The notes below the pieces were generated by a model. It ran no database searches. It had not been told where the DNA came from and saw nothing but the letters and a program-made list of their open reading frames with translations. A DNA stretch of 64,000 nt from assembly GCA_034521575.1 (NCBI GenBank), contig JAXHMJ010000002.1, positions 30,706-94,705 on the forward strand, in the 5' to 3' direction. Position numbers and translations under genes: made by a program. Source of the DNA: Candidatus Zhuqueibacterota bacterium (GTDB lineage: Bacteria; Zhuqueibacterota; Zhuqueibacteria; Residuimicrobiales; Krinioviventaceae). Numbering within the stretch: the stretch's first letter is position 1; each line of letters opens with the position of its first letter. Of this stretch, positions 5,802 through 63,581 are shown piece after piece.

Positions 5802-6257
5802 ATGGACACAGACGTATTATTGCGACGCTATCCCGAGAAAGATGCGTCCGCACTGATCCCGCTGCTTCAGGATATACAGGAAAGTTACGGTTATCTGTCG
5901 GAACCTGATCTGGCCAAAGTGGCCGGTTACTGTGACGTTCCCCTGTCGCGCATATACGGTGTGGCGACTTTTTATAATCAGTTCAGACTGCAGCCTCTGG
6001 GCAAGTATGTGATCCGTGTTTGCCGCGGAACCGCTTGTCATGTTAAAGGTTCGGGTGATTTACTGACCACACTTGAGAATGAACTCGGCATCAAAGCCGG
6101 TGAAACCACCAAGGATTTGAAATTTTCCATCGAAACCGTAGCTTGTATCGGCGCCTGTAGTATTGCGCCGGTGATTGCGATTAATGATGAATTTTACGGA
6201 AAACTGGATAATAAGAAAGTCAAGAAAATACTCAATGATCTAAAGTCTGAGGAGTAA
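5802..6257 (+). CDS. hydC: [FeFe]-hydrogenase NuoE-like [2Fe-2S] subunit (HydC/HndA family), operon 1
   Basis: Thioredoxin-like 2Fe-2S motifs CRGTAC...CIGACSIAPV. GAGAGG RBS. 151 aa. Confidence 0.88.
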   Translation: MDTDVLLRRYPEKDASALIPLLQDIQESYGYLSEPDLAKVAGYCDVPLSRIYGVATFYNQFRLQPLGKYVIRVCRGTACHVKGSGDLLTTLENELGIKAGETTKDLKFSIETVACIGACSIAPVIAINDEFYGKLDNKKVKKILNDLKSEE

Positions 6258-6260
6258 AAC

Positions 6261-8267: not shown

Positions 8268-8281
8268 AACAGAGGAATACA

Positions 8282-12430: not shown

Positions 12431-12823
12431 ATGAACGATAAAGTACTTTTGGTAGATGATGATGTCGATCTGATTGAACAATATACACCGGTTCTGGAGC
12501 AGGCCGGTTATCAGGTAAAAGGCGCCTATGACAGCAAAGAAGGCCTGGAGGCATTTGAAGCATTTAAACCGGATGTGGTTTTTGTTGATCTGGCCATGGA
12601 GCAGTTTGATTCCGGGTTTGTGCTTTGCCAAAAGCTGAAAAAAACGCAAAAAGGTGCAGACACGCCGGTGATTATCATGACCTCAGCCGGTCACGAAACC
12701 GGTATTCGCTTTTCCACGGATACGGCGGAGGAGAAAAAATGGATCCGCGCGGATGATTATCTGGAAAAACCGGTTGCGCCCCGCGATCTGGTGCAATATC
12801 TGAATGAAAAAATCTTTAAATGA
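12431..12823 (+). CDS. stand-alone response-regulator receiver (second copy, no output domain)
   Basis: VLLVDDDVDL...VVFVDLAME...MTS...K. 130 aa. Confidence 0.85.
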   Translation: MNDKVLLVDDDVDLIEQYTPVLEQAGYQVKGAYDSKEGLEAFEAFKPDVVFVDLAMEQFDSGFVLCQKLKKTQKGADTPVIIMTSAGHETGIRFSTDTAEEKKWIRADDYLEKPVAPRDLVQYLNEKIFK

Positions 12824-14301
12824 AAATTAAAAACGCCGACATATTGGTTGTGGATGATGAACGCGGTATGCGGGAAGGGATTCAGAGACTGCTGGGCCTG
12901 AAAGGCCTGAATGTGGATACGGCCGAGAGTGGCAGTGAAGGGATTGAAAAAGGCATTTCAAAAGAATATGACCTGTATTTCATTGATCTGAAAATTCCGG
13001 ATATTGAAGGCACCCAGGTGCTGCGTGAGATCAAGCTGGCCTATCCTGAAGCGATTTGTGTGATCCTGACCGCTTATGCGTCCATTGAAACCGCCATTGA
13101 AACCACTCAGCTCGGCGCTTATCAATATATTCCCAAACCGTTTGATCCGGAAGAGCTGCAGAATCTGGTCAACCGGGCGCTCGAAAAACGCTGGTACGTG
13201 CTGGAAGCGCGTCAGCTGCGTGAAGAGCGCGAAAAACGTCTTTTGGAACTGCAGCATGAACAATCGCGGGTCCGCAGTATCGTCAATGCTTTGGATGACG
13301 GGGTGGTGGTGATCAATGTGGACGGCCAGGTGGTGTTTCACAACTCGAGTTTTTTAAAGATGCTCAATGTGCCCAATGATTTTCAGACCGGTGAACAGGT
13401 TTGGGATATTGTGCCGGGAGAACTGCATGACCAGATCAAGGAGGTCATGGCGCAGCAGGATGATTTTCGCGCCATCAAACAGGAAATCACCATCAAACCG
13501 CCGGCTGAACTGGTGCTGATGGCCAACACGACGCCCATTGTTGATACGGATCATGAACTCATCGGTGTGGTATCGGTTTTACGCGATATTTCGGAACTCA
13601 AAAAACTGGACATTTTGAAATCCCAGTTTGTGAATATGGCAGCCCATGAACTCAAGGCGCCCCTGGCTGCCGTTCAGGGATACCTTGATTTGATCATTGA
13701 TCGTTCCCTCGGAGACAATCTTGACAGCTATCAGACCTACCTGGAGCGCTCCCACGACCGCCTCGAAGCTCTTATTTCCATGATCAATGATCTTTTGAAT
13801 ATTTCCAGAATGGAAGCCGGCAAAGTCAGACGTGAAATTGAACAAGTCGATCTGGCCGGTTTGCTTAAAGATAAAATTGAACTGTTTACAAAAGAAATAA
13901 AGCAGAAAAATTTACAACTTGATATTCGTCTGCAGAAAGATTTCATGGTGAAATGCGATCGCGAAGAAATAGAACGCGTTTTTAACAATCTGATCAGCAA
14001 TGCCGTCAAATATAATAAAGAAAACGGTACAATATCGATCAAAGCAGGTAAAGACGGACACTATGCCAAAGTCAGTGTCAGTGATACCGGAATCGGTTTG
14101 CAGCCTGATGAAAAGGACCGGCTGTTTGAAGAATTTTATCGGGCTAAAAACAAGTTTACACGAAAAATCACCGGTACCGGACTGGGTTTGTCTATTGTCA
14201 AACGTATTATAGACGCCAACGCCGGAAAAATCATTGTCGAAAGTGAATTTGAAAAAGGAACAACCTTTACCGTCTTTTTGCCACTGGAAACTGAATACTA
14301 G
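12820..14301 (+). CDS. hybrid sensor kinase: N-terminal REC + PAS + HisKA + HATPase_c
   Basis: REC (ILVVDDERGM...LYFIDLKIPD), PAS-like segment (VVVINVDGQVVFHNSSFLKM), H-box AAHELKAPL, N box NLISNAVKYN, G boxes DTGIGL/GTGLGLSIV. Overlaps the upstream REC stop (ATGA). Confidence 0.85.
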   Translation: MKIKNADILVVDDERGMREGIQRLLGLKGLNVDTAESGSEGIEKGISKEYDLYFIDLKIPDIEGTQVLREIKLAYPEAICVILTAYASIETAIETTQLGAYQYIPKPFDPEELQNLVNRALEKRWYVLEARQLREEREKRLLELQHEQSRVRSIVNALDDGVVVINVDGQVVFHNSSFLKMLNVPNDFQTGEQVWDIVPGELHDQIKEVMAQQDDFRAIKQEITIKPPAELVLMANTTPIVDTDHELIGVVSVLRDISELKKLDILKSQFVNMAAHELKAPLAAVQGYLDLIIDRSLGDNLDSYQTYLERSHDRLEALISMINDLLNISRMEAGKVRREIEQVDLAGLLKDKIELFTKEIKQKNLQLDIRLQKDFMVKCDREEIERVFNNLISNAVKYNKENGTISIKAGKDGHYAKVSVSDTGIGLQPDEKDRLFEEFYRAKNKFTRKITGTGLGLSIVKRIIDANAGKIIVESEFEKGTTFTVFLPLETEY

Positions 14302-16474: not shown

Positions 16475-16951
16475 ATGCAGAACTTGGATCGAGTGGATGC
16501 GATCGTGAAAAATTATAACGATATGAAAACACCACTCATTTACATTCTCAAGGATGTTCAGAAAGAATACGGATTTCTCTCTGAGGATATTCTGACGCGG
16601 GTCGCACAGAGAACCGATATCCCTCTGAGCAATATCTATGGTGTTGCGACATTTTACAGTCTCTTCACCACAGAAGAAAAGGGCAAATATATCGTTCGCT
16701 GCTGCAACAATGCCCCCTGTCATGTCAAAGGTTCAAAAGATGTTCTGGATGCAATCCAGAATTATCTCGGTGTGCAGGTCAATGAGACCTCACTGGACAA
16801 GACATTTACTCTGGAATTTACCAGCTGTCTCGGATTGTGTGCGGTTGCTCCCGTCATGATGATCAATGACGAGGTATATGGTAATCTGACTCCGGAAAAA
16901 GCAGTGTCAATTTTGAAAGATTATAAAATGAAAGGGCTGTCGAATGCATAG
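16475..16951 (+). CDS. hndA: NuoE-like [2Fe-2S] subunit (HndA/HydC family), operon 2
   Basis: CCNNAPCHVKG...CLGLCAVAPV. Paralogous to 5802..6257. Confidence 0.88.
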   Translation: MQNLDRVDAIVKNYNDMKTPLIYILKDVQKEYGFLSEDILTRVAQRTDIPLSNIYGVATFYSLFTTEEKGKYIVRCCNNAPCHVKGSKDVLDAIQNYLGVQVNETSLDKTFTLEFTSCLGLCAVAPVMMINDEVYGNLTPEKAVSILKDYKMKGLSNA

Positions 16952-18546
16952 ATCACATATACTCATCGCAATGGACGCTCACACGATAGCCCAGGGTGCC
17001 CGTGCCGTCAAGGAGGCTCTCGTGCGTGAGCTTGAAATGGCAAATCTCGGCAATGAGGTCAAGGTTGTTGAAACCGGCAGTCTGGGAATTTACAACAAGG
17101 GCGTGGTTCTGGTTGTGTTTCCGGATGCGGTTTACTATGCCGGTGTCAAGGTGGAAGATGTATCCGAGATTATTTCCGAGCACATTATCAAAGGGCGCAT
17201 TGTCGAACGTCTGCGCTATACCGACGTACCCGAATACAAAGAAGGCGAACAGGGCGAAGCCCCGCGCTTTGGCAAACAGATACGCGTTGTGTTGAAGAAC
17301 GCCGGCAATATTGATCCGGAAAGCATTCAGGAATATATCGCGAATGACGGTTATGAAGCGCTGGGACGTGCATTGACCGAGATGAAACCCGGTGAGGTGC
17401 TGGAAACCGTGAAAAACAGTGAACTGCTGGGACGCGGCGGCGCGTTTTTTCCCACTGGATTGAAATGGAGTTTTGCCGCAGCTGAAAAAAACACGCCCAA
17501 ATATATTGTCTGTAACGCCGATGAAGGCGAACCCGGCACATTTAAAGACCGGTTGATCCTGGAAGGCGATCCGCACCTCATTTTAGAGGGTATGGCACTG
17601 TCCGGATACGCGGTCGGCGCATCCATGGGCTATATTTACATTCGCGGTGAATATAAAATGTCCATTGAACGCATCAACCGCGCCATTGAACAGGCGCGTG
17701 AAAACGGATTGTTGGGCGAAAACCTGTTCGATTCGGATTTTTCTTTTGATATTGAGGTGCGTGAAGGCGCAGGCGCCTATATCTGCGGTGAGGAAACCGC
17801 TTTGATTGAATCGATCGAAGGCAAACGCGGTGAACCGCGTGATAAACCGCCGTTTCCGCCGTCAGAAGGTCTGTGGGGTAAACCCACAATCGTCAATAAT
17901 GTGGAAACTCTGGCCAATATTCCGCCGATTCTGCGCAATGGTCCGGACTGGTTCAAGAAAATGGGAACCGAGAAAAGCCGCGGCACCAAGGTGTTTACCA
18001 TGGTCGGCAATATCAACAATCCCGGATTGATCGAAGTGCCCATGGGCATCACGCTTCGTGAAATCATTTACGATATCGGACATGGCATTCCCAACGGCAA
18101 GGGCTTTAAACTGGCTCAGATGGGCGGCACCACCGGTGGTATTCTGACGGAAGAACACCTGGACATGCCCATGACGGTTGAAAATCTGCGCAGTGTCGGA
18201 GCCGGTCTGGGTTCGGGCGCTCTGCTGGTGGTTGATGAGTCTCAGGATGTGGTTGATCTGGTTCGCAATTTTGTTGAATTTTTCAACCATGAATCCTGCG
18301 GCAAATGTACACTGTGCCGTGAAGGCAACGGTCGACTGCTGCAGCTGCTGGATAAAATCCTGGACGGTCAGGGAACCGTTAAAGATATTGAATTGATGCA
18401 AGAATTTGGCACAGACCATGATGAAAGGCGCGTTCTGCGGCCTGGGTCAGGCCGCTCCCATTCCCGTGCTGGGATGTCTGAACCATTTCAGGAAAGATTT
18501 TCTGGCGGTTGTCCAAACCGCAGCGTCTGAAATTGAAGCTGCCTGA
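16944..18546 (+). CDS. hndC: NuoF-like flavoprotein subunit (HndC/HydB family), operon 2. An apparent 1-nt indel near 18405-18417 moves the last ~40 aa into another frame. It has no fused N-terminal HndB domain and no C-terminal ferredoxin tail.
   Basis: GRGGAFFPTGLKW, HESCGKCTLCREG. Then TMMKGAFCGLGQAAPIPV...AASEIEAA in frame +1, matching the NTSLCGLGQTAANPV tail of the paralog. Confidence 0.85.
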
Positions 18547-18605
18547 GGTCTGTGAAGCAATGTTGAACTGGAACTGTGATAATCATGAATAAACGGAGGT
18601 GTCCT

Positions 18606-20345
18606 GTGGCAAACGTCACCGTAACCATAGACGGCATTCAGCTGAGTGTTCCCCAGGGGACAACAGTCATGGATGCTGCAGAAAAAGCAAAAATACAAAT
18701 TCCACGATTGTGCTATCATCCTGATCTTCCTCCGGTCTCCGCCTGCCGCCTGTGTGTGGTCGAAATTGAAGGCGACCGGCTGTTGAGAACCGCGTGTTCC
18801 TGGAAGTGTCAGGACGGTATGAACATCAAAACACGCACCAAACAGGTGCGCGATTCCCGTAAAATGGCGCTGGAACTGATTCTGTCGCGTCACCCCATGT
18901 TGTGCACCGAATGTGTGCGCAATCAGGATTGCGAACTCCAGAGCATGGCGGAACAGCTGGGTATTCGCGAAACCCGTTTTGAATACTCGGAGCGTCCCGG
19001 TGTAGCCGATCATTCCAGTGAAGCGATTGTTCGCGATCCGGCCAAATGTATCCTGTGCCGCCGTTGTATCCAGACCTGTGAACTGGTGCAGAGCGTCAGC
19101 GCGATCGGCCTGGAAGGCCGCGGCTATGATACCTGGGTGGATACACCGTTCGGCAAAGGCATCGCCGATGTGGCGTGTGTGTCCTGTGGTCAATGTATCG
19201 ACCGCTGTCCGGTCGGCGCCTTGTACGAAAATCCGCATATCCAGCGTGTCTGGGATGCGATTGATGATCCGGAAAAACATGTGGTCATCCAGACGGCTCC
19301 GGCTGTCCGCGCTGCCATTGGCGAAGAGTTCGGTATGGAACCGGGGTCACTGGTCACGGATAAAATGGTGACCGGTCTGCGCATGCTGGGTGTGGACAAG
19401 GTGTTTGATACCAACTTTACCGCGGATCTGACCATTATGGAAGAAGGTCATGAGCTGCTGGGTCGCATCAAAAACGGCGGTACTTTGCCGCTCTTGACCA
19501 GCTGTTCGCCGGGATGGATTAATTTTATCGAGCATTTCTATCCCAGTCTGCTGCCGCACGTGTCCTCCTGTAAATCGCCGCAGCAGATGTTCGGCGCTTT
19601 GGCAAAAACCTATTACGCGGATAAAATGGGTATCAAACCGGAAAATATTTACAGTGTTTCGGTCATGCCCTGCACCGCGAAAAAAGTCGAAGCCGGACGT
19701 CCTGAGATGAACGACAGCGGATTCCAGGATGTGGATGCGGTACTGACCACGCGCGAAGCGGCGTTTATGATGAAACAGGTGGGTATCAATCTACCGGATT
19801 TGCAGCCCGGCGAATATGATGAACCTCTGGGTGTATCAACCGGCGCCGCTGTGATTTTCGGCAACACCGGCGGTGTGATGGAAGCGGCCCTGCGTACCGT
19901 GTATGAAGTGGTGACCGAATCCAAGATCGAAGATGTCAATATCAAAGCCGTACGCGGCATGCAAGGCGTTCGTGAAGCGGAAATCAATCTAAACGGCACC
20001 ATCGTCAAGGGCGCGGTCGCCAACGGACTGGCCAATGCGCGCCAGCTCATGGACAAGATCGTGTCCGGTGAAGCGGATTACCACTTTATCGAGATCATGG
20101 CCTGTCCGGGCGGATGTATCGGCGGCGGCGGTCAGCCGATCCCGACGTCCATGGACATCCGTCAGAAACGTGTGGATGCCATCTATGCGGCGGATGAAAG
20201 TCTCGAAATCCGCAAATCACATGAAAATCCGGCGGTGATCAAACTCTATAAAGAGTTCCTGGGTGAACCGAACGGACATAAATCTCATGAACTGCTGCAC
20301 ACGCATTATACGGAAAAACAGGTCTACAAAGACGTACCTGCTTAA
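18606..20345 (+). CDS. hndD: [FeFe]-hydrogenase catalytic subunit, operon 2 (intact). A GTG start at 18606 is assumed after a GGAGG RBS; an upstream ATG at 18576 is possible.
   Basis: N-terminal ferredoxin modules as in hydA. H-cluster motifs TSCSPGW, MPCTAKKVE and EIMACPGGCIGGGGQP. Confidence 0.88.
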   Translation: MANVTVTIDGIQLSVPQGTTVMDAAEKAKIQIPRLCYHPDLPPVSACRLCVVEIEGDRLLRTACSWKCQDGMNIKTRTKQVRDSRKMALELILSRHPMLCTECVRNQDCELQSMAEQLGIRETRFEYSERPGVADHSSEAIVRDPAKCILCRRCIQTCELVQSVSAIGLEGRGYDTWVDTPFGKGIADVACVSCGQCIDRCPVGALYENPHIQRVWDAIDDPEKHVVIQTAPAVRAAIGEEFGMEPGSLVTDKMVTGLRMLGVDKVFDTNFTADLTIMEEGHELLGRIKNGGTLPLLTSCSPGWINFIEHFYPSLLPHVSSCKSPQQMFGALAKTYYADKMGIKPENIYSVSVMPCTAKKVEAGRPEMNDSGFQDVDAVLTTREAAFMMKQVGINLPDLQPGEYDEPLGVSTGAAVIFGNTGGVMEAALRTVYEVVTESKIEDVNIKAVRGMQGVREAEINLNGTIVKGAVANGLANARQLMDKIVSGEADYHFIEIMACPGGCIGGGGQPIPTSMDIRQKRVDAIYAADESLEIRKSHENPAVIKLYKEFLGEPNGHKSHELLHTHYTEKQVYKDVPA

Positions 20346-33689: not shown

Positions 33690-33707
33690 AAAAAAGAAAG
33701 GTTGATT

Positions 33708-35666
33708 ATGATCTACAAATTAATGCTCTCATTTCTATTGTTGGTTTCAAGTTTGATATTTTCACAGCAAAAAATGCCTCCCGGGGTAGAAAAATCAAAA
33801 GACGAACCCATTGTTTACTCGGGCGAACAGACCGTCGATAAACATTATTTTGACGGCAAGCTGCCGCATGCTGTGGGTGTGCATCAATATCAAGTCGTAA
33901 GAGCAAACCGACAACATCCTCCGGGTGAAGGCGGCATTGGCTATACCTATAATCATCAGCCTTACCTGGCCTATTGGAACGGTCGGTTTTATTATCAGTA
34001 TTTGTCCGGTTTGTATCAGGAACATACACCGCCAACCCGCACTTCCATATTGACGTCCCAAGATGGTGTGAACTGGAGTGATCCGACGGTGGTTTTCCCT
34101 GTTTATAGATTGCCCGAGATTACAAGAGATGATATTCATATTCCCGAAGGAATGCCAGCGGTTATGCATCAACGTATGGGTTTTTATGTCGCGCCGAACG
34201 GCAGATTACTGACATCCGGGTTTTATAGTTACTGCAAAAGTCCACAGCATTCTCCCAATGTCGGCAAGGGTTTGGGACGAGTCGTCAGGGAAATTAAAAA
34301 GGACGGTACATTCGGCCCCATCTATTTTATTCGCTACAACCGGCATGCCGGTTTCGACGAATCGAATACAAAATATCCCTTTTATACCGAGAGTGATGAT
34401 ACAGGGTTTATCAAAGCTTGTGAAGCTCTTTTGCAAAACAAGCTGATGACCCTGCAGTGGTGGGAAGAAGATCGGGCTGAAGACGGTTTTTACCCGATTA
34501 ATCCCGGGGATATTGAAAATGCGTTTCAGTTTCATCAAAAAATTACAACCTCAAAGGGTGCGGGGAAAGCGTTTGATTGGTATACACGACCTGATAGTGT
34601 GGTGGTGGGATTGTGGAAAAACCAGTATGCGGCCTTGACAACTGATAAAGGCAATACCTGGACGCCGATTACGAAAAATAAAACATTGATTACGGCAGGG
34701 TCCAAAACATGGGCACAAAAAACAGATGATGGCAGATATGCGCTCGTTCATAACCAGTCACCCACATGGCGAAATCGTTTCCCGATGGTTGTAATGACAA
34801 GTGAGGACGGATATGAATTTACAGAAATGTTATGTGTCAGCGGACAAGTTCCACCGCAACGGTACAGCGGATTAAATAAAAATTTTGGCCCTCAATATTT
34901 CCGCGGCATTGCCGAGGGAAATGGCAATCCCCCGGGGGATAAAATGTGGGTTGTATTCAGCAACAATAAAGAAGATATGTGGATTGCAAATATAACAACA
35001 CCTATAACAGGCGAGGTCACCAAAGATATTGATCAAAATTTCAACTCAGTTGCCCGTGCTGATGCACTGGATTACTGGAATCTATATGTCCCCCAATGGG
35101 CATCTGTTGACATTGTCAATGATCTGGACGGCATAAACAAAGTACTACAACTCAAAGATGAAGAACCTTATGATTATGCGCGAGCCGAAAAAATATTCCC
35201 TCAAAGTCAACATATCGAGATCAGCTTTAGAGTTTATCCCTACGGGGTGAGGCTCGGCAAAGCGCTTGAAGTTGAGGTGCACAGTGAAAAAGGAGAGAGG
35301 GCGGCGCGGCTGCGCATCGACCATGATAATGTTCGTTTCGACTTGCTTGATGTTGAACTGGACGGGGTTGATATGCAACCGCTGACATGGCATCAAATCA
35401 AGCTCGTTCTTGATTGTGATTCACAATCCTATGATTTTTATCTCGACGGAAAGATTCAAAGAAAAGCCATTGAGTTTGGTGAGCCGGTCAGCAATGTAAA
35501 CCGTATCGTATTTAGAACGGGCCCATACAGGAATATTGTGCCGCTTGATTACCTCGATGGTTATCCGGATGCCGTTGGAATGTTTGGTGAGGATTTGCCT
35601 TTTTCCGGACAAAAAGTAAAACCTGTTGTTTACTGGATTGATGATTTTGTGACCCGGAGTCATTAG
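33708..35666 (+). CDS. secreted BNR/Asp-box (sialidase-like) beta-propeller protein with a C-terminal beta-sandwich. Paralog of 45492..47435.
   Basis: Signal peptide. Asp-boxes TSQDGVNWSDP and TTDKGNTWTPI. About 45% identity to the 45492 gene over the full length. Confidence 0.65.
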   Translation: MIYKLMLSFLLLVSSLIFSQQKMPPGVEKSKDEPIVYSGEQTVDKHYFDGKLPHAVGVHQYQVVRANRQHPPGEGGIGYTYNHQPYLAYWNGRFYYQYLSGLYQEHTPPTRTSILTSQDGVNWSDPTVVFPVYRLPEITRDDIHIPEGMPAVMHQRMGFYVAPNGRLLTSGFYSYCKSPQHSPNVGKGLGRVVREIKKDGTFGPIYFIRYNRHAGFDESNTKYPFYTESDDTGFIKACEALLQNKLMTLQWWEEDRAEDGFYPINPGDIENAFQFHQKITTSKGAGKAFDWYTRPDSVVVGLWKNQYAALTTDKGNTWTPITKNKTLITAGSKTWAQKTDDGRYALVHNQSPTWRNRFPMVVMTSEDGYEFTEMLCVSGQVPPQRYSGLNKNFGPQYFRGIAEGNGNPPGDKMWVVFSNNKEDMWIANITTPITGEVTKDIDQNFNSVARADALDYWNLYVPQWASVDIVNDLDGINKVLQLKDEEPYDYARAEKIFPQSQHIEISFRVYPYGVRLGKALEVEVHSEKGERAARLRIDHDNVRFDLLDVELDGVDMQPLTWHQIKLVLDCDSQSYDFYLDGKIQRKAIEFGEPVSNVNRIVFRTGPYRNIVPLDYLDGYPDAVGMFGEDLPFSGQKVKPVVYWIDDFVTRSH

Positions 35667-39204: not shown

Positions 39205-41703
39205 ATGTTGAATCATAAAGTATTGCTTGCTGTCATTGTCTTTTTTTACGCAACTCTGTTATCCGCCCCCAAAGAGGACCATACTGTATCTCTTTGGCTG
39301 TTTGATGAACAATGCGATTTATATCCAAGTCAGGTTTTAGTGAACTGTTCGGAACATAATCTGCCGCTTGTACTCGGCCCGGGCGGAAGAATTGTTAAAG
39401 GCAAATTTGGAAATGCGCTCGAGCCCCTGATGCATCCTAAAGTTGTGCTGCCCGAGGGCCAGAAAAGATTCGGGCTTGTAAAGCTTGATCCTCCTCCGGG
39501 ACGCACCGTTGCGCCTTTGACGTGGTACAATGCCGAATTTGCGGCGTTGATGACCAGCGGCGAAACGCATCTGCGCAAACAGGTCGGGTTTCAAAGCCCG
39601 GCGGCGACTGCAATGAATCTGGGCGATTTTGACTGGACCGTAGAATTCTGGTTTTATCCCAATCAGAATTCTGATAGCGGAACCGTTTTTGAAATTGGAG
39701 CCGGGCCCAGGGGGGAAAATGAAAAATTAACACGCCTCAGTCTGGATCTAAAGAACCGTTCATTTAGTTTCTTTAACCCAAAGATTCAAAGCGCGGTTAC
39801 TCTGCCTACTGAGCTCACGTTTGAAACATGGCATCATGTTGCATTTGTGCATGTCGCTGATAACGACAAAATTCTCCATTTTGTGGATGGAGTATTATTG
39901 TCGACAGCGAATAACGTCACTATCGGGAAACTCAGACCTTCCTTTGCCGAAGATTATATGAGCATTGCCCGGGACGGTCTGTGGGAACATCCTCTGCAAG
40001 GCAAAATCGATGAATTGAGATTTTCGGATGATGTAATTTATACAAATGAGTTTAATCCGCCTGAAAGCTTTTCCAGTATTTATCAGGAAGGATACGTTGC
40101 GGATCAACTTGAAAAAGGCCCGCCTCTGTTGTTTGATGATGAATCCAGGGATGATACGCCGCTACAGCTGGGCGGCAGAAAACATCTGTTTATTGATGAT
40201 GCGTTTCTTGAGACCGTCGGCGATGTCGAGTTTACGGTTAATCCTCCTGAAAAAAAAGAACTGGTAATTGGTAATGTTAAAGGCCGCTTTAGAAAACATT
40301 TAACCGTTATCGAAGATGAGGATGGATTGATCCGCATCTATAATTCCGTCCAGGATGATTATATGATTGTTCATACATCCAGAGACGGCGTAAATTTTAA
40401 AGCTCCCAATACCGGTACAAGTCATGGCGGCTGGGATAATATTGTGATTCCCGAACGTGTTGGCGGTAAAGGCACTCCTTTTATCGATCCGAACGGCAAA
40501 GGCGATCATAAATGGAAATATATATCCAGTTATCATAATCGCGGGGTTTATCTTTATACCTCTGCGGACGGCTGGAGCTGGAGCCGCCGGAAAATGGCTT
40601 TAATTCCTTTTAGAAGTGGCACGCAATCCTGTACATTTTATGATGACCAGCGGCAGATGTATGTTTCAACCCACCGGACCGGTATATTTCATACACCGGG
40701 CGGCGCCACTCAAAGAAGTACAGTCATTACTCAAACTGAGAATCTGTACAAGCCTGTCAAATATGAACCTCTAAGCCAAATGGACTATTGGGAACTGGAT
40801 AAAAAATACCGACTGCGCGAACCACAGCCCTGGTGGCTTGATAACGGTCCGCTGACTCCCGGTGATTTTGGGTTGGAATTTCCGCATGCCTTTGATCCAA
40901 CCGGGGACGATCCCGTTGGAATGGATATTTATATAACCAAAGCTATAAAGTACGAGTATGCTCCGGATACGTATCTCTCGTTTCCGATCACTTATTTTCA
41001 TTATGAAAAAGATGGGCCGCTGACACGACAGATATTATACGATTCGACTCGACTGCGAGGAGAAGGACCAATTGAAACCCAGATCGCTGTGAGTCGCAAT
41101 GGGCTGGACTGGAAACGGTATTATCAACCCGCGTATGTTCCCATTGGAAAACATAAAGGAATTGATGTAAAGATGGCCTATATCGCGCAGGGTATGGTCA
41201 GGCGTGGAGATGAACTGTGGCAGCATTATTGGGCTGAACCGCATTATCATGGGCCCTGGGTAACGTATGATGACAAGAGAGCGGTATTTCGATTGGTGCA
41301 ACGATTGGACGGATTCATATCGATTGACAGTCCGTATGAAAAAGAAGCCGTGATCAAGACAAAGCCGTTTGTTTTTGAGGGAAACCGGCTTGTTCTTAAT
41401 ATTGACACCGATGCGGTAGGGTATACTCAGGTTGGTTTTGTGGATGAGCATGATAATCCGATTCAAGGCTTTTCAGTGGATGATTGTGTTTACATCAATG
41501 GTGACTTTATTAAAGAAAAAGCTGAATGGATTCAAAATCGCGAGGAATTTACAGATGTGAGTATTGGCGAAGGTGAATCCACTGAAATATTGGAAAAAGT
41601 AAAGACGACAAAAGATGTTTCTCCGCTTGAAGGTAAAGTGGTAAAACTTGTTTTTCGAATGAGAGGGTCAAAACTCTATTCTCTGCAGTTTACAAATAAA
41701 TAA
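39205..41703 (+). CDS. copy B (intact, 832 aa): signal peptide + LamG/concanavalin-like jelly-roll + BNR/Asp-box propeller + C-terminal beta-sandwich
   Basis: GKIDELRFSDDVIY (Laminin_G_3-type terminal motif). Asp-boxes TSADGWSWSRR and VSRNGLDWKRY. C-terminus KLVFRMRGSKLYSLQF. Confidence 0.7.
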   Translation: MLNHKVLLAVIVFFYATLLSAPKEDHTVSLWLFDEQCDLYPSQVLVNCSEHNLPLVLGPGGRIVKGKFGNALEPLMHPKVVLPEGQKRFGLVKLDPPPGRTVAPLTWYNAEFAALMTSGETHLRKQVGFQSPAATAMNLGDFDWTVEFWFYPNQNSDSGTVFEIGAGPRGENEKLTRLSLDLKNRSFSFFNPKIQSAVTLPTELTFETWHHVAFVHVADNDKILHFVDGVLLSTANNVTIGKLRPSFAEDYMSIARDGLWEHPLQGKIDELRFSDDVIYTNEFNPPESFSSIYQEGYVADQLEKGPPLLFDDESRDDTPLQLGGRKHLFIDDAFLETVGDVEFTVNPPEKKELVIGNVKGRFRKHLTVIEDEDGLIRIYNSVQDDYMIVHTSRDGVNFKAPNTGTSHGGWDNIVIPERVGGKGTPFIDPNGKGDHKWKYISSYHNRGVYLYTSADGWSWSRRKMALIPFRSGTQSCTFYDDQRQMYVSTHRTGIFHTPGGATQRSTVITQTENLYKPVKYEPLSQMDYWELDKKYRLREPQPWWLDNGPLTPGDFGLEFPHAFDPTGDDPVGMDIYITKAIKYEYAPDTYLSFPITYFHYEKDGPLTRQILYDSTRLRGEGPIETQIAVSRNGLDWKRYYQPAYVPIGKHKGIDVKMAYIAQGMVRRGDELWQHYWAEPHYHGPWVTYDDKRAVFRLVQRLDGFISIDSPYEKEAVIKTKPFVFEGNRLVLNIDTDAVGYTQVGFVDEHDNPIQGFSVDDCVYINGDFIKEKAEWIQNREEFTDVSIGEGESTEILEKVKTTKDVSPLEGKVVKLVFRMRGSKLYSLQFTNK

Positions 41704-41733: not shown

Positions 41734-44231
41734 ATGTTGAATTATAAAGTATTGCTTGCTGTCATTGTCTTTTTTTACGCAACTCTGTTATCCGCCCCCA
41801 AAGAGGATCATACTGTATCTCTCTGGCTGTTTGATGAACAATGCGATTTATATCCAAGTCAGGTTTTAGAAAACAGTTCGGAACATAATTTGCCGCTTGT
41901 ACTCGGCCCGGGCGGAAGAATTGTTAAAGGTAAATTTGGAAATGCGTTCGAGCCCCTGATGCATCCTAAAGTTGAGCTGCCCGAGGGTGAAAAAAAGTTC
42001 GGGCTTGTAAAGCTTGATCCTCCTCCGGGACGCACCGTTGCGCCTTTGACGTGGTACAATGCCGAGTTTTCGGCGTTGATGACAAGCGGCGAAACGCATC
42101 TGCGCAAAGAGGTCGGGTTCCAAAGCCCGGCGGCGACTGCAATGAATCTGGGCGATTTTGACTGGACCGTAGAATTCTGGTTTTATCCCAATCAGAATTC
42201 TGATATTGGAACGGTCTTTGAAATTGGCGCCGGACCCAGGGGGGAAAATGAAAAATTGACACGTCTCAGTCTGGATCTAAAGAACCGTTCATTTAATTTC
42301 TTTAACCCAAAGATTCAAAGCGCGGTTACTCTGCCTACTGAGCTCACGTTTGAAACATGGCATCATGTTGCATTTGTGCATTTCGCTGATAACGACAAGA
42401 TTCTCCATTTTGTAGATGGAAAATTATTGTCGACAGCGAATAACGTCACTATCGGGAAACTCGAGCCTTCCTTTGCCGAAGATTATATGAGCATTGCCCG
42501 GGACGGTCTGTGGGAACATCCTCTGCAAGGTAAAATTGATGAATTGAGATTTTCGGATGATGTAATTTATACAAATGAGTTTAATCCGCCTGAAAGCTTT
42601 TCCAGTATTTATCAGGAAGGATACGTTGCGGATCAACTTGAAAAAGGCCCGCCTCTGTTGTTTGATGATGAATCCAGGGATGATACGCCGCTACAGCTGG
42701 GCGGCAGAAAACATCTGTTTATTGATGATGCGTTTCTTGAGACCGTCGGCGATGTCGAGTTTACGGTTAATCCCCCTGAAAAAAAGAACTGGTAATGGGT
42801 AATATTAAAGGCCCCTTTAGAAAACATTTAACCGTTATCGAAGATGAGGATGGATTAATCCGCATCTATAATTCCGCCCATGACGATTTTATGATTGTTC
42901 ATACATCCAGAGACGGCGTAAATTTTAAAGCTCCCAATACCGGTACAAGCTATCGCGGCAGGGATAATATTGTGATTCCCGAACGTGTTGGCGGTAAAGG
43001 CACTCCTTTTATCGATCCGAACGGCAAAGGCGATCATAAATGGAAATATATATCCAGTTATCATAACCGCGGTGTTTACCTTTATACCTCTGCGGACGGC
43101 TGGAGCTGGAGCCGCCGGAAAATGGCTTTAATTCCTTTTAGAAGTGGCACGCAATCCTGTACATTTTATGATGACCAGCGGCAGATGTATGTTTCAACCC
43201 ACCGGACCGGTATATTTCATACACCGGGCGGCGCCACTCGAAGAAGTACAGTCATTACTCAAACTGAGAATCTGTACAAGCCTGTCAAATATGAACCTCT
43301 AAGCCAAAATGACTATTGGGAACTGGATAAAAAATACCGACTGCGCGAACCACAGCCCTGGTGGCTTGACAATGGTCCGTTGACCCCCGGTGATTTTGGG
43401 TTGGAATTTCCGCATGCCTTTGATCCAACCGGGGACGATCCCGTTGGAATGGATATTTATGTAACCAAAGCTATAAAGTACGAGTATGCTCCGGATACGT
43501 ATATCTCGTTTCCGATCACTTATTTTCATTATGAAGAAGATGGACCGCTGACACGACAGATATTAATAGATTCGACTCGACTGCGGGGAGCCGGACCAAT
43601 TGAAACCCAGATCGCTGTGAGTCGCAATGGGCTGGACTGGAAACGGTATTATCAACCCGCGTATGTTCCCATTGGAAAACATGGGGGGATTGATGTAAAG
43701 ACCGCCTATATCGCACAGGGTATGGTCAGGCGTGGAAATGAACTGTGGCAGTATTATTTTGCTGAACCGCATTATCATTCCGCCTGGGTAAAATATGATG
43801 ACAAGAGAGCGGTATTTCGACTGGTGCAACGATTAGACGGATTCATATCAATTGACAGTCCGTATGAAAAAGAAGCCGTGATCAAGACAAAGCCGTTTGT
43901 TTTTGAAGGAAACCGGCTGGTCCTTAATATTGACACCGATGCGGTAGGGTATACTCAGGTTGGTTTTGTGGATGAGCATGATAATCCGATTCAAGGCTTT
44001 TCAGTGGATGATTGTGTTTACATCAATGGTGACTTTATTAAAGAAAAAGCTGAATGGATTCAAAATCGCGAGGAATTTACAGATGTGAGTATTGGCGAGG
44101 GTGAATCGACTGAAATATTGGAAAAAGTAAAGACGACAAAAGATGTTTCTCCGCTTGAAGGTAAAGTGGTAAAACTTGTTTTTCGAATGAGAGGGTCAAA
44201 ACTCTATTCTATGCAGTTTTTGAACGAGTAA
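41734..44231 (+). CDS. copy C, about 95% nt identity to copy B. One frameshift at an A7-versus-A8 homopolymer near 42785 splits it into 41734..42795 and 42795..44231.
   Basis: Near-identical nucleotide sequence to copy B, including the 30-bp upstream spacer. 'cctgaaaaaaagaactgg' versus 'cctgaaaaaaaagaactgg' in copy B. Confidence 0.75.
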
Positions 44232-45491: not shown

Positions 45492-47435
45492 ATGAAAAAT
45501 CTATCAAAAAGTATAATAGTTATAGTAATTTTGTTTTTGAATGTCGGGATCCATGCTGAAAAAAAATATCCGCTATCAATAAAAGAAAGCAAAAACGAGC
45601 CGGTTAAATATATTGGAAACCGTCAAACGAACAAATATTTCTATGATGGAAAATTACCGCATGCCGCCGGGGTACATACTTTTCAGGTTTTTAGAGCCAA
45701 CCGTTCAAATCCGACAGAGGGCGGCTTGATCGGTTGGACATACAGCCATGCTCCGATGTTGGCATTTTGGAACGGTAAATTTTATCTGCAGTATTTAAGT
45801 AACTTGAAAGAAGAACACGGCGCTCCCGGCAGAACTTTGATTGCTGCTTCGGAAAACGGAACTGACTGGACTAATCCTCAAGTTGTTTTTCCTGTTTATT
45901 CGCTCCCCGAGATTGATGCCGGATTTGGATACATACCGAAAGGTATGGCTTCTGTGATGCATCAGCGTATGGGATTTTATGTGGCGCCAAACGGCAAACT
46001 TTTAACAATAGGGTTTTACAGTTATTGTGCCACACCCAGACATAGCCCGAACCTGGGGCAAGGACTGGGAAGAGTTGTCAGAGAAATCTATAAAGATGGC
46101 TCTTTCGGTCCGATTTACTTTATTCGATATAACCGGCATGCCGGATGGAATGAAACCAATACGGATTACCCGTTCTACAAAGAAAGTGATGACCCGGCAT
46201 TTCTCAAGGCATGTGAGGATTTACTTGCCGATAAACTGGCGACTCTGCAATGGTGGGAAATGGATAGAGCTAAAGATGGCTTTTACAATATTGATAGGGG
46301 CAAACATGAAATTAAGGCGCTTTGTTATTATAAACGACCTGATGATGTCGTTGTTGGTTTATGGAAACATAATCTTGCGGCTCTGAGTTCCGATACCGGT
46401 GAGACCTGGACAAGTATCAGCACTTGTCCCACTCTAAAAACCTGCGGGGCAAAAGTGTGGGGCCAGAGAACGAAAGATAACAGATACGCTCTGGTTTATA
46501 ACCATTCGGCTTCGTTAAGAAATCGATTTCCACTTGTTATTATTACCGGTAACGATGGGCATCATTTTGATGATATGCTTTGTATTAATGGGCAGGTACC
46601 GCCGATGAGATATCAGGGTATTCATAAAGGTTTAGGGCCACAATATATTCGCGGGATTGTGCCTGGTAATGGTAATCCGGCGGGGAATGATATCTGGATC
46701 ACCTACAGTGTTAACAAGGAAGATATTTGGATATCAAAAATCAAGGTTCCCGTCACCGGAATTGCTGATGAGCATATTAACGAATCATTCGATGATATCA
46801 ATGAGATAGCCGATTTAGCAGAGTGGAGTTTCTATGTTCCTAAATGGGCCCCGGCGGAAATTGCATCAAAGAAGCAGCAATCTGCCGATAACGTTCTAAG
46901 ATTAACGGACGAAGAACCTTACGATTATCTGCGAGTTGAAAAGCTCATTCCCGAGAGCAAAAAGCTTTCAGTTAAATTCAGCATCAAACAAGTCCTGCTC
47001 GGTTCCGCCAAGTTGGAATTTGAAATTCATGACATAAAAGGCAAAAGACCACTGCGTCTTCTCTTTTCAGAAGAGTGGCTTATGTTCGATAGAGGTCCTC
47101 TGGAAATTGATCCTGTTAAATATTCAGTCGGAGACTGGCGGCATATCGAGTTAAAACTGAATTGTGAAACTCAATCTTATGATGTCTATTTAGATAAAGC
47201 GTTGGTCAAAGAAAAAATCCCTTTTGCTGTTAAAACAGAATCTTTGCAGCGAATTGTTTTTAGAACCGGACCCTGGCGCGGTGACGTCAGACCTTTCATC
47301 GTTAATGGAGAACCTGGTAATCCGGGTTTGTACCAGGAAGATTTGCCGGGCGCTGATTTTAAAACAGGCGCAAGCATTTTTGAAATTGATAATATTCAGA
47401 CCACAATGGATGAGGCTATTAAAAGCGGAGAATGA
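45492..47435 (+). CDS. secreted BNR/Asp-box propeller protein, paralog of 33708..35666
   Basis: Asp-boxes ASENGTDWTNP and SSDTGETWTSI. Shared blocks YFYDGKLPHA, MHQRMGFYVAPNG, GLGRVVREI. Confidence 0.65.
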   Translation: MKNLSKSIIVIVILFLNVGIHAEKKYPLSIKESKNEPVKYIGNRQTNKYFYDGKLPHAAGVHTFQVFRANRSNPTEGGLIGWTYSHAPMLAFWNGKFYLQYLSNLKEEHGAPGRTLIAASENGTDWTNPQVVFPVYSLPEIDAGFGYIPKGMASVMHQRMGFYVAPNGKLLTIGFYSYCATPRHSPNLGQGLGRVVREIYKDGSFGPIYFIRYNRHAGWNETNTDYPFYKESDDPAFLKACEDLLADKLATLQWWEMDRAKDGFYNIDRGKHEIKALCYYKRPDDVVVGLWKHNLAALSSDTGETWTSISTCPTLKTCGAKVWGQRTKDNRYALVYNHSASLRNRFPLVIITGNDGHHFDDMLCINGQVPPMRYQGIHKGLGPQYIRGIVPGNGNPAGNDIWITYSVNKEDIWISKIKVPVTGIADEHINESFDDINEIADLAEWSFYVPKWAPAEIASKKQQSADNVLRLTDEEPYDYLRVEKLIPESKKLSVKFSIKQVLLGSAKLEFEIHDIKGKRPLRLLFSEEWLMFDRGPLEIDPVKYSVGDWRHIELKLNCETQSYDVYLDKALVKEKIPFAVKTESLQRIVFRTGPWRGDVRPFIVNGEPGNPGLYQEDLPGADFKTGASIFEIDNIQTTMDEAIKSGE

Positions 47436-59259: not shown

Positions 59260-60580
59260 ATGGCGTATTATCGCAATCGTCGGTCTTTTCTCAAAACGAG
59301 TGTATTGACTGTATCATCACTTGTTTTAACAGGGGTTAACTGTTCGTCTAAAAACGCGACGGAAGAGAAATCCAAGCAGCCGAACATTATATTTATACTG
59401 GCGGATGATTTGGGATGTGAAATTCCGGGAGTTTATGGCGGTGAGACGTACAAAACGCCGAACGTTGACGCCCTTGCCCGTCGCGGTATCCGTTTCACAC
59501 AGTGTTACAGTTCCCCGGCATGCGCGCCTTCGCGTGTTAAACTGTTAACAGGCAAATACGGTTTTCGTAATTATATCGGATGGGGGGCAATGAAGGATAA
59601 AGAACGAACCTTTGCTCATGTTTTAAAAAATGCCGGTTATAAAACCGCAATTGCCGGGAAATGGCAAATGGTTTTGCAAAAAAATGAACCGGATCATGTT
59701 CAGAAAATGGGCTTTGATGAGAGCTGTGTGTATGGGTGGCATGAAGGCCCGCGCTATTACGGGCCGTTTATCTACGAAAACGGCAAACCGCGAAAAGAAC
59801 CGGATGATCAATATGGCCCGGATATATTCTGCAAATTTATAACCGATTTCATCAGAAACAATCAGGGATTCCCCTTTTTTGGCCTATTATTCTATGTGCC
59901 TGCCGCATGAGATCAGCAATGACTTGCCTTCACCGCCGCCCACCGGCCCTGATGGACGCTATCAGACCTATAAGGAGCTAATTGAAACAATGGATATACT
60001 GATCGGACGAGTTGTAAAAACACTCGACGAGTTGAAGATATGCGAGGATACGCTGATTTTGTTCGCAGGAGATAACGGAACTCCGCCTGCTTTTATTTCA
60101 CGATATGAGAATGGCGAATATATAAAAGAGCCTTTATATTCAATTGTGAATGGTGAAAAAGCTATCGGAGGCAAGAAACAGCTCACAGATGCCGGTACCC
60201 ATGTGCCGTTGATCGCCAGCTGGCCGGGAACCACACCGGCAGGGACGGTTTGCGATGATCTGGTCGATTTTACTGATTTTCTGCCTACTTTTGCCGACTT
60301 GGCTCATACTTTGCCGCCTGAAAATCTGACTATTGACGGCATTAGTTTTTTACCGCAAATTCTGGGTCAAAAGAATCCAAATTCAAGAAAGTGGTCTTAT
60401 TGCCAATGGGATGGACAGGCCTGGGTTCGCACAAAACATTTCAAGCTCTACCGCGACGGCCGGTTTTATGATATGAAACGTGATCCTTTGGAACAATCAC
60501 CGATAGATCATGATACAGCAGCGAGCAAAAGGGCGAGAACAAAATTAGTAAAAATTCTCAGCCTTTGTGACACCAACTGA
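59260..60580 (+). CDS. sulfatase (formylglycine-dependent). An apparent T6 homopolymer frameshift near 59885 splits it into 59260..59910 and 59879..60580.
   Basis: Signal. Signature CAPSRVKLLTGK (CxPxR). The second ORF continues YYSMCLPHE...LFAGDNGTP. Confidence 0.8.
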
Positions 60581-62469: not shown

Positions 62470-62745
62470 ATGGCTATCAAAAAGTCCACAATTAAACAGC
62501 TCAATCTGTTATGGGAACGCATCCAGGTCGAGCGCTACAGCGGCAGCAAAGCCAATGAGGCTCCGACAGCTCTTGTTTTTCAGGACCGCCGCGTCAAAAT
62601 CACCGACATACAGGATCGATGGTACGAAGGCGGACTCGACTCGAGCCGACCTGCCTTGTACTATTTCAAAGTTCGAACCACGGATGACGAGATTTATCTG
62701 CTGCGCTACGACCCCCTGTTTGATAAATGGTTCTTTCGCGAGTAG
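62470..62745 (+). CDS. small hypothetical protein (91 aa)
   Basis: Protein-like composition (RWYEGGLDSSRPALYYFKVRTTDDEIYLLRYDPLFDKWFF). The overlapping 62438..62764 ORF in another frame looks less protein-like. Confidence 0.3.
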   Translation: MAIKKSTIKQLNLLWERIQVERYSGSKANEAPTALVFQDRRVKITDIQDRWYEGGLDSSRPALYYFKVRTTDDEIYLLRYDPLFDKWFFRE

Positions 62746-62879: not shown

Positions 62880-63581
62880 ATGAGTACAAGGAGACCCGAG
62901 AATATGAATGTCAATCTAAAGAAAGAACAACACGCATCCAGAGAGAGACCCCGATATCCCTATTCGCTTGCGGCAAAAGCCTTTTTCTTTTCTATGGACT
63001 TGATCACCGGTAAAAAAATTACCTTGGCCAAGGCCAAACTCATAGAGATGCTGGCAAGCATCCCTTACCGATCCTGGGAAATTCGCCAGTACGCTCGAAT
63101 GACACGATGCTACCGAAATTCAGAGTTGGTTCAAGAAGCATCCAATATTTTAAACTGGAGTCGAGAAGCGCAGGACAACGAATTCTGGCACCTGATGGTC
63201 ATTGATGAGAAAATGAAAAAAGATGGCGTAAAAGAGCCCTGGTATCTGTTCCCTGTTTTCCCCTTTGTTATGGTTACTGTTTATGTTATCCTGACGCGCC
63301 TTGTGGCTCTGGTGAGCATTCGCAGAGCGTTTCTGTTCAATGCAGAATTTGAGGATCATGCTGAACACGTCTATGCACAATTTGTGGACGAACATCCTGA
63401 ATGGGAAAATGAACCTGTTACGAATAAAGTCAGGGAATATGCAAATCTGGATAACTGGGCCGATATCTTTAGGCGTATTGGACTGGATGAACGGGATCAC
63501 ATGAATAACAGTTTTGTCTTATGCGGCAAGCCGGAACGTGTTGTGAAATATGGCGGCATGCCTGATCTGCCCACAGTTTAA
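62880..63581 (+). CDS. alternative oxidase (AOX/PTOX-family di-iron carboxylate quinol oxidase)-like protein. A start at 62904 after an AGGAGA RBS is possible.
   Basis: Four-helix di-iron motifs in order: IEMLASIP (LET-like), NEFWHLMV (NERMHL-like), EFEDHAEHVY (LEEEA-like), DERDHMN (RADEAxH-like). Confidence 0.65.
   Translation: MSTRRPENMNVNLKKEQHASRERPRYPYSLAAKAFFFSMDLITGKKITLAKAKLIEMLASIPYRSWEIRQYARMTRCYRNSELVQEASNILNWSREAQDNEFWHLMVIDEKMKKDGVKEPWYLFPVFPFVMVTVYVILTRLVALVSIRRAFLFNAEFEDHAEHVYAQFVDEHPEWENEPVTNKVREYANLDNWADIFRRIGLDERDHMNNSFVLCGKPERVVKYGGMPDLPTV

Follow-up and report, generated by a model that had tools for sequence, protein, structure and literature searches.

A putative quinol oxidase of the AOX/PTOX superfamily in a Candidatus Zhuqueibacterota bacterium and the clade to which it belongs

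Introduction

Oxygen reductases are counted as four types, namely the heme-copper, bd, alternative oxidase (AOX) and PTOX enzymes, in a survey of December 2025 in which, among prokaryotes, AOX is restricted to Alpha-, Beta- and Gammaproteobacteria and PTOX to Cyanobacteriota, the sample being a RefSeq-balanced set without most metagenome-assembled genomes (MAGs) (PMC7618691). The present analysis concerns a gene of this kind on a stretch of 64,000 nucleotides from a Candidatus Zhuqueibacterota (KSB1) bacterium (assembly GCA_034521575.1, contig JAXHMJ010000002.1, positions 30,706 to 94,705 of the forward strand), hereafter the window, in which the gene occupies 62904..63581 of the + strand. Enzymes of the AOX type require no heme or copper and show no sensitivity to cyanide, sulfide or NO. 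The closest known family to the protein described here, both by profile comparison and by best BLAST match, is PTOX/IMMUTANS, which is found in cyanobacteria, cyanophages and plastids. An earlier note on this DNA had read the gene product as an AOX/PTOX-like di-iron protein, with a COQ7-like or rubrerythrin-like protein as the alternative. As outlined below, the first of these identities is supported, and the protein and its homologues in a wide range of mostly anaerobic bacteria appear to form a clade of their own within the superfamily.

Results

Family assignment and active site

As judged from its sequence and from a structural model, the gene product belongs to the di-iron carboxylate oxidases of the AOX/PTOX superfamily, and is predicted to consist of one subunit with a monotopic attachment to the membrane. 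The open reading frame (ORF) listing contains an ORF at 62880..63581 (+) of 233 amino acids from its first ATG, and its translation carries, in the order that had been claimed, the four Glu/His motifs IEMLASIP (residues 55-62), NEFWHLMV (100-107), EFEDHAEHVY (156-165) and DERDHMN (203-209). The second methionine (Met9, ATG 62904) is the start in 34 close homologues and in the NCBI copy of the protein (P0001, 'alternative oxidase [candidate division KSB1 bacterium]', 225 amino acids) and is preceded by an aaggag element, so the real gene start is most likely ATG 62904, giving a gene of 62904..63581 and a product of 225 amino acids. Residue numbers throughout are those of the 233-residue frame. 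The features of the gene are as follows.

62888..62893, + strand: Shine-Dalgarno-like aaggag, 10 nucleotides 5' of ATG 62904, read from the sequence
62904..63581, + strand: gene of the AOX/PTOX-like di-iron protein, 225 amino acids, placed by the starts of homologues and by a Pfam AOX match above the gathering cut-off
62967..63008, + strand: predicted helix 1 of the model, residues 30-43, LAAKAFFFSMDLIT, matched by hhalign to the amphipathic membrane-side helix alpha1 of bacterial AOX
63042..63065, + strand: IEMLASIP on bundle helix 2, with Glu56 (63045-63047) as iron ligand 1
63177..63200, + strand: NEFWHLMV on helix 3, with the iron ligands Glu101 (63180-63182) and His104 (63189-63191)
63237..63329, + strand: hydrophobic helix 4, residues 120-150 (hydropathy, model helix 126-145, hhalign), presumed to be a monotopic anchor comparable to AOX alpha4
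63345..63374, + strand: EFEDHAEHVY on helix 5, with the iron ligand Glu158 (63351-63353) and Tyr165 (63372-63374) at E+7
63486..63506, + strand: DERDHMN on helix 6, with the iron ligands Glu204 (63489-63491) and His207 (63498-63500)

The Pfam AOX model PF01786 matches the protein with 26.7 bits (gathering cut-off 22.7), residues 37-208 aligning with positions 33-208 of the 216 in the model. The only other Pfam match is to COQ7 (PF03232), which at 14.7 bits stays under its cut-off of 23.5. The comparison of PF01786 with COQ7 and ferritin-like families that had been put forward as a check thus came out on the side of AOX. Among 10 distant members of the clade, seven pass the PF01786 cut-off, one falls just under it with 20.8 bits and two fail to reach it, and no NCBIfam model matches the window protein. 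Sequence searches of the Protein Data Bank (PDB) found no oxidase, either with the protein (phmmer) or with a 35-sequence family profile (hmmsearch); the kinship to AOX enzymes of solved structure is too distant to show up in a plain comparison of sequences. Homology to the trypanosome alternative oxidase (TAO) is argued from Pfam, from profile-profile comparison and from the model. The gene product is not unannotated, since database names are already present: 'alternative oxidase' and 'ubiquinol oxidase' at NCBI and JGI, and 'demethoxyubiquinone hydroxylase' for some homologues.

Conservation was assessed in two alignments, A1 with 35 close sequences and A4 with 27 sequences that include relatives at only 23-35% identity. 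In A1, E56, E101, H104, E158, Y165, E204, H207, K51, D99 and D203 are invariant, along with others, and N100 is at least 90% conserved; in A4, E56, E101, Y165, K51 and G44 are invariant, and H104, E158, D203, E204 and H207 are at least 90% conserved. Reference sequences were retrieved with AOX and PTOX fragments that served as probes only; the references themselves are TAO (from the PDB, with its numbering) and, from annotated records, three proteobacterial AOX, two cyanobacterial PTOX and three cyanophage PTOX. The register against TAO obtained by hhalign of A4 is as follows.

E56 corresponds to TAO E123
E101/H104 correspond to TAO E162/H165
E158 corresponds to TAO E213
Y165 corresponds to TAO Y220
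E204/H207 correspond to TAO E266/H269
N100 corresponds to TAO N161
D203 corresponds to TAO D265
K51 corresponds to TAO R118

In TAO, according to published structure work, these positions include the iron ligands, the catalytic tyrosine Y220 and an arginine that contacts inhibitor or quinol. The six ligands in the order E/ExxH/E/ExxH that the superfamily requires are thus present on four helices of the window protein, and so is the tyrosine seven residues past the third ligand glutamate (Tyr165, E158+7), which is invariant in both alignments. The second-sphere positions (TAO N161 and D265) are conserved as Asn100 and Asp203. One distant clade member in A4, P0231, has lost several ligand positions, reading AAALASHAEH where the family has FEDHAEH and DKRDDMN where it has DERxH, and is possibly an inactive paralogue.

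Predicted fold

The AlphaFold2 model built on the family alignment has a mean pLDDT of 88.9 and a pTM of 0.87, with helices at residues 30-43, 49-76, 81-114, 126-145, 147-170 and 193-214, and the four motifs map to its four bundle helices. When the model was compared with the PDB by Foldseek, the only significant matches were TAO chains (best TM 0.69, 228-251 columns), followed by COQ7 with an E of 0.2 and a TM of 0.34. From these TAO matches it follows that the model reproduces the full six-helix AOX architecture, beyond a mere four-helix bundle: the six long helices that characterize the superfamily, four in the bundle and two on the membrane side, are all predicted. The hydrophobic central region that had been noticed in the ORF is real: residues 120-150, which hhalign places against AOX alpha4, are strongly hydrophobic (Kyte-Doolittle values of up to 2.3 over 19 residues), the membrane topology being a prediction.

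The ligand set, the hydrophobic membrane helix and the best HMM match, all of which point to AOX/PTOX, speak at the same time against the alternative identities that the earlier note had listed. COQ7 is rejected by an HMM score under the cut-off and by a weak fold match, and a rubrerythrin or ferritin-like protein is the best match neither by HMM nor by fold.

Position relative to AOX and PTOX

By profile-profile comparison (hhalign), the family matches PTOX with a probability of 99.5% (E 4e-22, 167 columns) and AOX with 96.4% (E 1e-9). In BLASTP, the best canonical match is PTOX and never AOX for all 27 sequences of A4, whose distant members reach 37% identity to PTOX (E 2e-19). A neighbor-joining (NJ) tree (Poisson distances, 216 columns, 100 bootstraps) separates AOX (bootstrap 100), PTOX (100) and all the new sequences (99), the tight subfamily of the window protein being supported by 100; rooted on AOX, it places the new clade as sister to PTOX, although this is a simple distance tree whose deep branching needs better methods. 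According to these sequence comparisons, the window protein belongs to a third clade, sister to the cyanobacterial and plastid PTOX, which is neither canonical AOX nor canonical PTOX and which lies closer to PTOX by profile. Membership in canonical AOX is contradicted both by the tree and by the signature motifs. Membership in canonical PTOX is contradicted by the tree and by the hosts, which are KSB1, Desulfobacterota, Planctomycetota and others rather than the plastoquinone-containing Cyanobacteria.

Distribution and selection

In a collection of 5.8 billion proteins, 1032 homologues of the window protein were detected, the best 120 of which are 65-84% identical to it. The window subfamily, within which identities are 60-84%, is encoded in at least 252 stretches of contigs from a GTDB set with one genome per species. 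Nearly all of the best 80 of these 252 come from MAGs, and their hosts are Verrucomicrobiota, Lentisphaerota/Victivallis, Planctomycetota/Phycisphaerae, Thermodesulfobacteriota, Geobacter, Syntrophales, Nitrospirota, Krumholzibacteriota, Omnitrophota, Marinimicrobia, Cloacimonadota, Aminicenantes, Fermentibacteria, Anaerolineae, Chrysiogenales and others, lineages that are anaerobic for the most part. The earlier note had called AOX rare in bacteria; the present clade, with at least 252 species, is not very rare. A search with the HMMER family profile among 1.84 billion representatives at 50% identity gave 397 matches at E <=1e-3 and 41 at E <=1e-30; with only 397 representatives, the window subfamily is compact. 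The profile of a more distant subgroup retrieved at least 4697 proteins, of which the few with a named source belong to Actinomycetota (Acidimicrobiales, Mycobacteriales, Solirubrobacteraceae) and to Rokubacteria MAGs. No tblastn match to the oxidase was obtained in plasmids. In one deltaproteobacterial MAG, MFD00032.bin.1.71, two copies of the oxidase gene lie on different contigs (L059 and L060; L numbers designate related loci).

Between the window gene and its homologues from 13 loci, dN is 0.12-0.30 and dS is saturated in nearly all pairs. The GC content of the gene (0.445, GC3 0.469) is close to that of the window (0.451) and of its other genes (0.467 and 0.480). Because GC content matches and dS is saturated against all relatives, a recent transfer is not indicated; as read from these sequences, the identity across phyla reflects strong, long-standing purifying selection and not recent acquisition, and old transfers have probably contributed to it as well.

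Neighbourhood of the homologous genes

No universal neighbour was found across 76 related loci by crude ORF calls and all-against-all clustering, and in Pfam scans of 71 upstream and 71 downstream neighbours no family occurred in more than four loci each. The homologues of the actinobacterial subgroup likewise stand alone, and a stand-alone gene fits a single-subunit enzyme. Near two actinobacterial-type homologues on different MAG contigs, the alpha and beta subunits of a nitrile hydratase are encoded at a distance of about 0.4 kb (L090 7144..8446) and 3.4 kb (L093 10135..11739), a pairing that may be coincidence.

Oxidative-stress genes occur in nine of the 76 loci taken together, with a flavodiiron protein in eight, rubrerythrin in five, a Fur-family regulator in five, Fpg in four, ferritin in three and desulfoferrodoxin in three. 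The clearest arrangement is that of the Cloacimonadota-type loci L070, L072, L073 and L078, in which a Fur-family regulator, Fpg, the AOX-like gene and a flavodiiron protein are co-directional and tightly packed; in L073 the series continues downstream with an ECF S-component, a phosphoribosyltransferase, ferritin and desulfoferrodoxin. In the three of these four loci that hold the regulator gene, a 7-1-7 inverted repeat, TTGTAATnGTTACAA (TTGTAAT-n-GTTACAA), lies 5' of it (L073 8700..8760, L078 3970..4028, L070 140..190), between a -10-like box and the ribosome-binding site, and is followed by an extra TTGTAACAA half-site. The 7-1-7 inverted repeat is the typical form of Fur/PerR-family operators, and we regard this sequence as a candidate PerR-type operator of Cloacimonadota. 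In the Marinimicrobia loci L057 and L074, the third and fourth genes on the downstream side, which lie on the opposite strand, encode rubrerythrin and a flavodiiron protein. Eight flavodiiron genes were observed among 1088 neighbouring ORFs with fewer than one expected, an expectation that is a rough estimate from about two such genes per 3000-gene genome, the loci being phylogenetically non-independent and the genes coming from at least three lineages. The proposal that the enzyme serves in O2 detoxification, which had been made from the window gene, gains support from these homologues inside oxidative-stress operons.

Neighbourhood in the window

The genes ahead of the window gene code for a Na+/solute symporter, for a sulfatase that a frameshift has probably split and for a GDSL-esterase/peptidase fusion, and a 91-residue ORF comes last; downstream follows the gene of a secreted protein that runs off the end of the window. 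A scan for sigma-70 promoters and terminators around the oxidase gene gave nothing beyond shuffled sequence. The 91-residue ORF (62470..62745, +), directly 5' of the oxidase gene, could from its sequence plausibly encode a protein; Pfam gives no match to it, and it does not recur beside oxidase homologues. The sulfatase is represented by two overlapping ORFs, 59260..59910 and 59879..60580 (+), which both cluster with sulfatases of related loci and are, by their sequence, probably one frameshifted gene.

Two HydABC-type sets, each with NuoE-like, NuoF-like and [FeFe]-hydrogenase genes, are located at 5802..9993 and 16475..20345. The earlier note was right in assigning the DNA to an H2-metabolising organism; of its statement that the oxidase stands next to hydrogenases, the presence of the sets in the window is confirmed, the nearer of them being 43 kb away and hence not adjacent. 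The HydA-like gene of the first set is distributed over two ORFs in different frames, 8282..9319 and 9328..9993 (+), with positions 3-117 of the H-cluster domain model in the former and 128-245 in the latter, a split that stems from a frameshift, from decay to a pseudogene or from faulty assembly; the second set is intact. Between the sets, an ORF of 676 amino acids (10003..12033, +) combines an H-cluster domain (PF02906, 1.8e-49), Fe-S motifs, HisKA and HATPase_c, and its product looks like a sensory hydrogenase-histidine kinase fusion; a PAS/receiver hybrid kinase follows at 12820..14301. Elsewhere in the window, BT_1020-like beta-propeller/sialidase-like CBM proteins are encoded in duplicate (33702..35666 and 45492..47435), and so are two Laminin_G_3 proteins whose domain occupies the same residues, 139-278, in both (39205..41703 and 41734..42795). 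Several sulfatases and a TonB-dependent receptor lie near these duplicated genes of glycan-degradation type, and together they suggest a region for the utilisation of sulfated polysaccharides.

Discussion

Proposed function

On balance, and with moderate confidence, we favour the view that the window protein acts as a non-pumping quinol:O2 oxidoreductase that scavenges oxygen, probably with menaquinol as its substrate. By analogy with AOX and PTOX, the enzyme would attach to the membrane from its cytoplasmic side by means of helices 1 and 4 and would draw electrons from the membrane quinol pool, most likely from menaquinol, with the quinol binding near Lys51 and the di-iron site. The di-iron centre would be held by E56, E101/H104, E158 and E204/H207, Tyr165 would assist in the reaction, and two quinols would provide the four electrons that reduce O2 to water, with no proton translocation. 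In the KSB1 bacterium such an enzyme could function as a heme- and copper-free O2 scavenger, or as a relief valve of the quinol pool, during transient exposure to O2, and could shield iron-sulfur enzymes, among them the O2-sensitive [FeFe]-hydrogenases, when oxygen intrudes. Menaquinol is the likely donor because most host lineages use menaquinone and because the Actinomycetota, in which the sister subgroup occurs, are known to make menaquinone only. A heme- and copper-free, sulfide-insensitive enzyme would suit sulfidic, iron-rich anoxic habitats. Some handling of O2 would be in character for KSB1, since the Zhuqueibacterota have been characterised from MAGs as largely facultative anaerobes (PMC11683472). 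The relevant phyla do not appear in the quinone-distribution paper and its supplements.

Several points weigh against an oxygen-scavenging quinol oxidase. The window protein is only 23-28% identical to AOX or PTOX (23% to bacterial AOX), TAO goes undetected by the family profile when sequence alone is used, and the position of TAO T219 is occupied by valine. The window gene itself has no stress-related neighbours, its flanks being the sulfatase, the esterase and the secreted protein, and no genes for quinone biosynthesis or a respiratory chain were seen among the approximately 47 window ORFs scanned. Linkage to stress genes is restricted to a minority of loci (about nine of 76) and to few lineages, and the enrichment in flavodiiron genes is a rough figure that is not phylogenetically corrected. 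Moreover, the quinols with which AOX and PTOX are known to work are ubiquinol and plastoquinol, and no member of the superfamily is known to depend on menaquinol.

Other explanations

The same fold and di-iron centre could serve resistance to NO or sulfide, either as an insensitive bypass for quinol oxidation or in the direct handling of NO together with the flavodiiron protein, instead of O2 scavenging in general. Canonical relatives do adjoin NO-related genes: in Azospirillum and Sphingobium the AOX gene has a group III truncated haemoglobin gene as its neighbour, and in Acaryochloris the PTOX gene has that of the large subunit of an NO reductase (L085 1049.., L086 1440.., L088 1..342). Flavodiiron proteins, the commonest recurrent neighbours in our loci, are reductases of O2 and/or NO. 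However, the other partners in the operons, namely Fpg, ferritin, desulfoferrodoxin and rubrerythrin, indicate O2 and reactive oxygen species (ROS) rather than NO, and the window oxidase adjoins no NO sensor or nitrosative-stress gene. We consider this role unlikely; it also overlaps heavily with the quinol oxidase proposed above, as the protein would still be one.

A role as a di-iron hydroxylase or desaturase that uses O2 to modify a membrane lipid or a precursor of quinone, with COQ7-like chemistry and no function as a terminal oxidase, seems to us improbable to the same degree. The E/ExxH/E/ExxH site is common to hydroxylases, and the COQ7 match, although sub-threshold, and the hydroxylase label on some homologues point in this direction. 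The unusual constraint on the sequence and its conserved terminal extensions could likewise reflect a specific substrate or partner. Against COQ7 itself stand the family and fold comparisons given above.

That the gene codes for an ordinary canonical AOX, a ubiquinol oxidase recently acquired from Proteobacteria, would agree with the NCBI and JGI names. This is very improbable and is rejected by the tree and the identities: the protein shares 23% identity with bacterial AOX, the NJ tree splits AOX (100), PTOX (100) and the new clade (99), and 27 of the 27 clade members have PTOX as their best match. The motifs also differ, with ASIPY versus AAVPG and FEDHAEH versus LEEEA, and neither the GC content of the gene (0.445, about the 0.451 of the window) nor the saturated dS fits a recent arrival. 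Finally, a chance ORF or a decayed pseudogene with coincidental motifs, to which only the weak Pfam score of the single sequence could be thought to point, has practically no chance of being correct and is refuted by the 1032 homologues, the strong purifying selection, the confidently predicted fold, the intact frame and the ribosome-binding site.

Significance

A broader proposal, which we make tentatively and hold to be possible rather than probable, is that the clade constitutes a third major branch of the AOX/PTOX enzymes, one not recognised until now, namely a heme-free menaquinol:O2 oxidoreductase that would act as the membrane O2 scavenger of anaerobes and would be under PerR-type control in some lineages. 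Its hosts would be strict and facultative anaerobes of more than 15 phyla, with a sister subgroup in the Actinomycetota. No AOX/PTOX-type enzyme of KSB1, of anaerobes or of Actinobacteria was found in the full-text literature, subscription journals being outside the scope of that search. If correct, the proposal would overturn the view that limits AOX among prokaryotes to Pseudomonadota and PTOX to Cyanobacteriota, and would bring a new class of terminal oxidase into the O2 defence of anaerobes. It would also touch the old idea of di-iron proteins as early oxygen reductases, and would change estimates of which organisms consume O2 and of when such enzymes arose. Anaerobes that run O2-sensitive hydrogenases would gain a scavenger of O2 that is independent of heme and copper and presumably insensitive to sulfide and cyanide; should menaquinol be the donor, it would be the first member of the superfamily that uses a low-potential quinol. 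To specialists in terminal oxidases, a conserved PTOX-like enzyme across anaerobic phyla, located sometimes in a putative PerR-type operon, would be surprising. It has thousands of relatives in Actinomycetota-type metagenome sequences. Being small and of a single subunit, the enzyme is directly amenable to testing in oxidase-deficient E. coli.

Comparison with known systems

The catalytic scaffold is a familiar one, in a different clade and a different host physiology and probably with a different quinone. With PTOX, the window family shares the motif forms LE..A(R/S)(V/I)PY, NE..H, E-x-H-A-..-Y and DE..H with the six ligands and the tyrosine, a basic residue (Arg in PTOX, K51 here) that stands five positions ahead of the first glutamate, and a single-subunit, stand-alone gene. 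Unlike PTOX, it carries conserved extensions at the N-terminus (RPRYxYS) and the C-terminus (VxYxGMP), occurs in non-photosynthetic and mostly anaerobic bacteria in which plastoquinone is not expected, and forms its own clade (bootstrap 99 versus 100 for PTOX) at an identity of 23-28%. From AOX, as represented by TAO (PDB 3VV9) and the proteobacterial enzymes, it differs by an identity of 15-24%, by its separate clade, by its range of hosts and by the replacement of the signatures LET(V)AAVPG, NERMHL, LEEEA and RADEAxHRxxNH. COQ7/Clk-1 is similar in being a membrane-associated di-iron four-helix bundle that acts on a quinone, with a weak similarity in sequence (14.7 bits). The soluble rubrerythrin and flavodiiron proteins resemble the predicted enzyme in their non-heme di-iron centres and in the removal of O2 or peroxide in anaerobes, and in some phyla their genes adjoin the homologues of the window gene.

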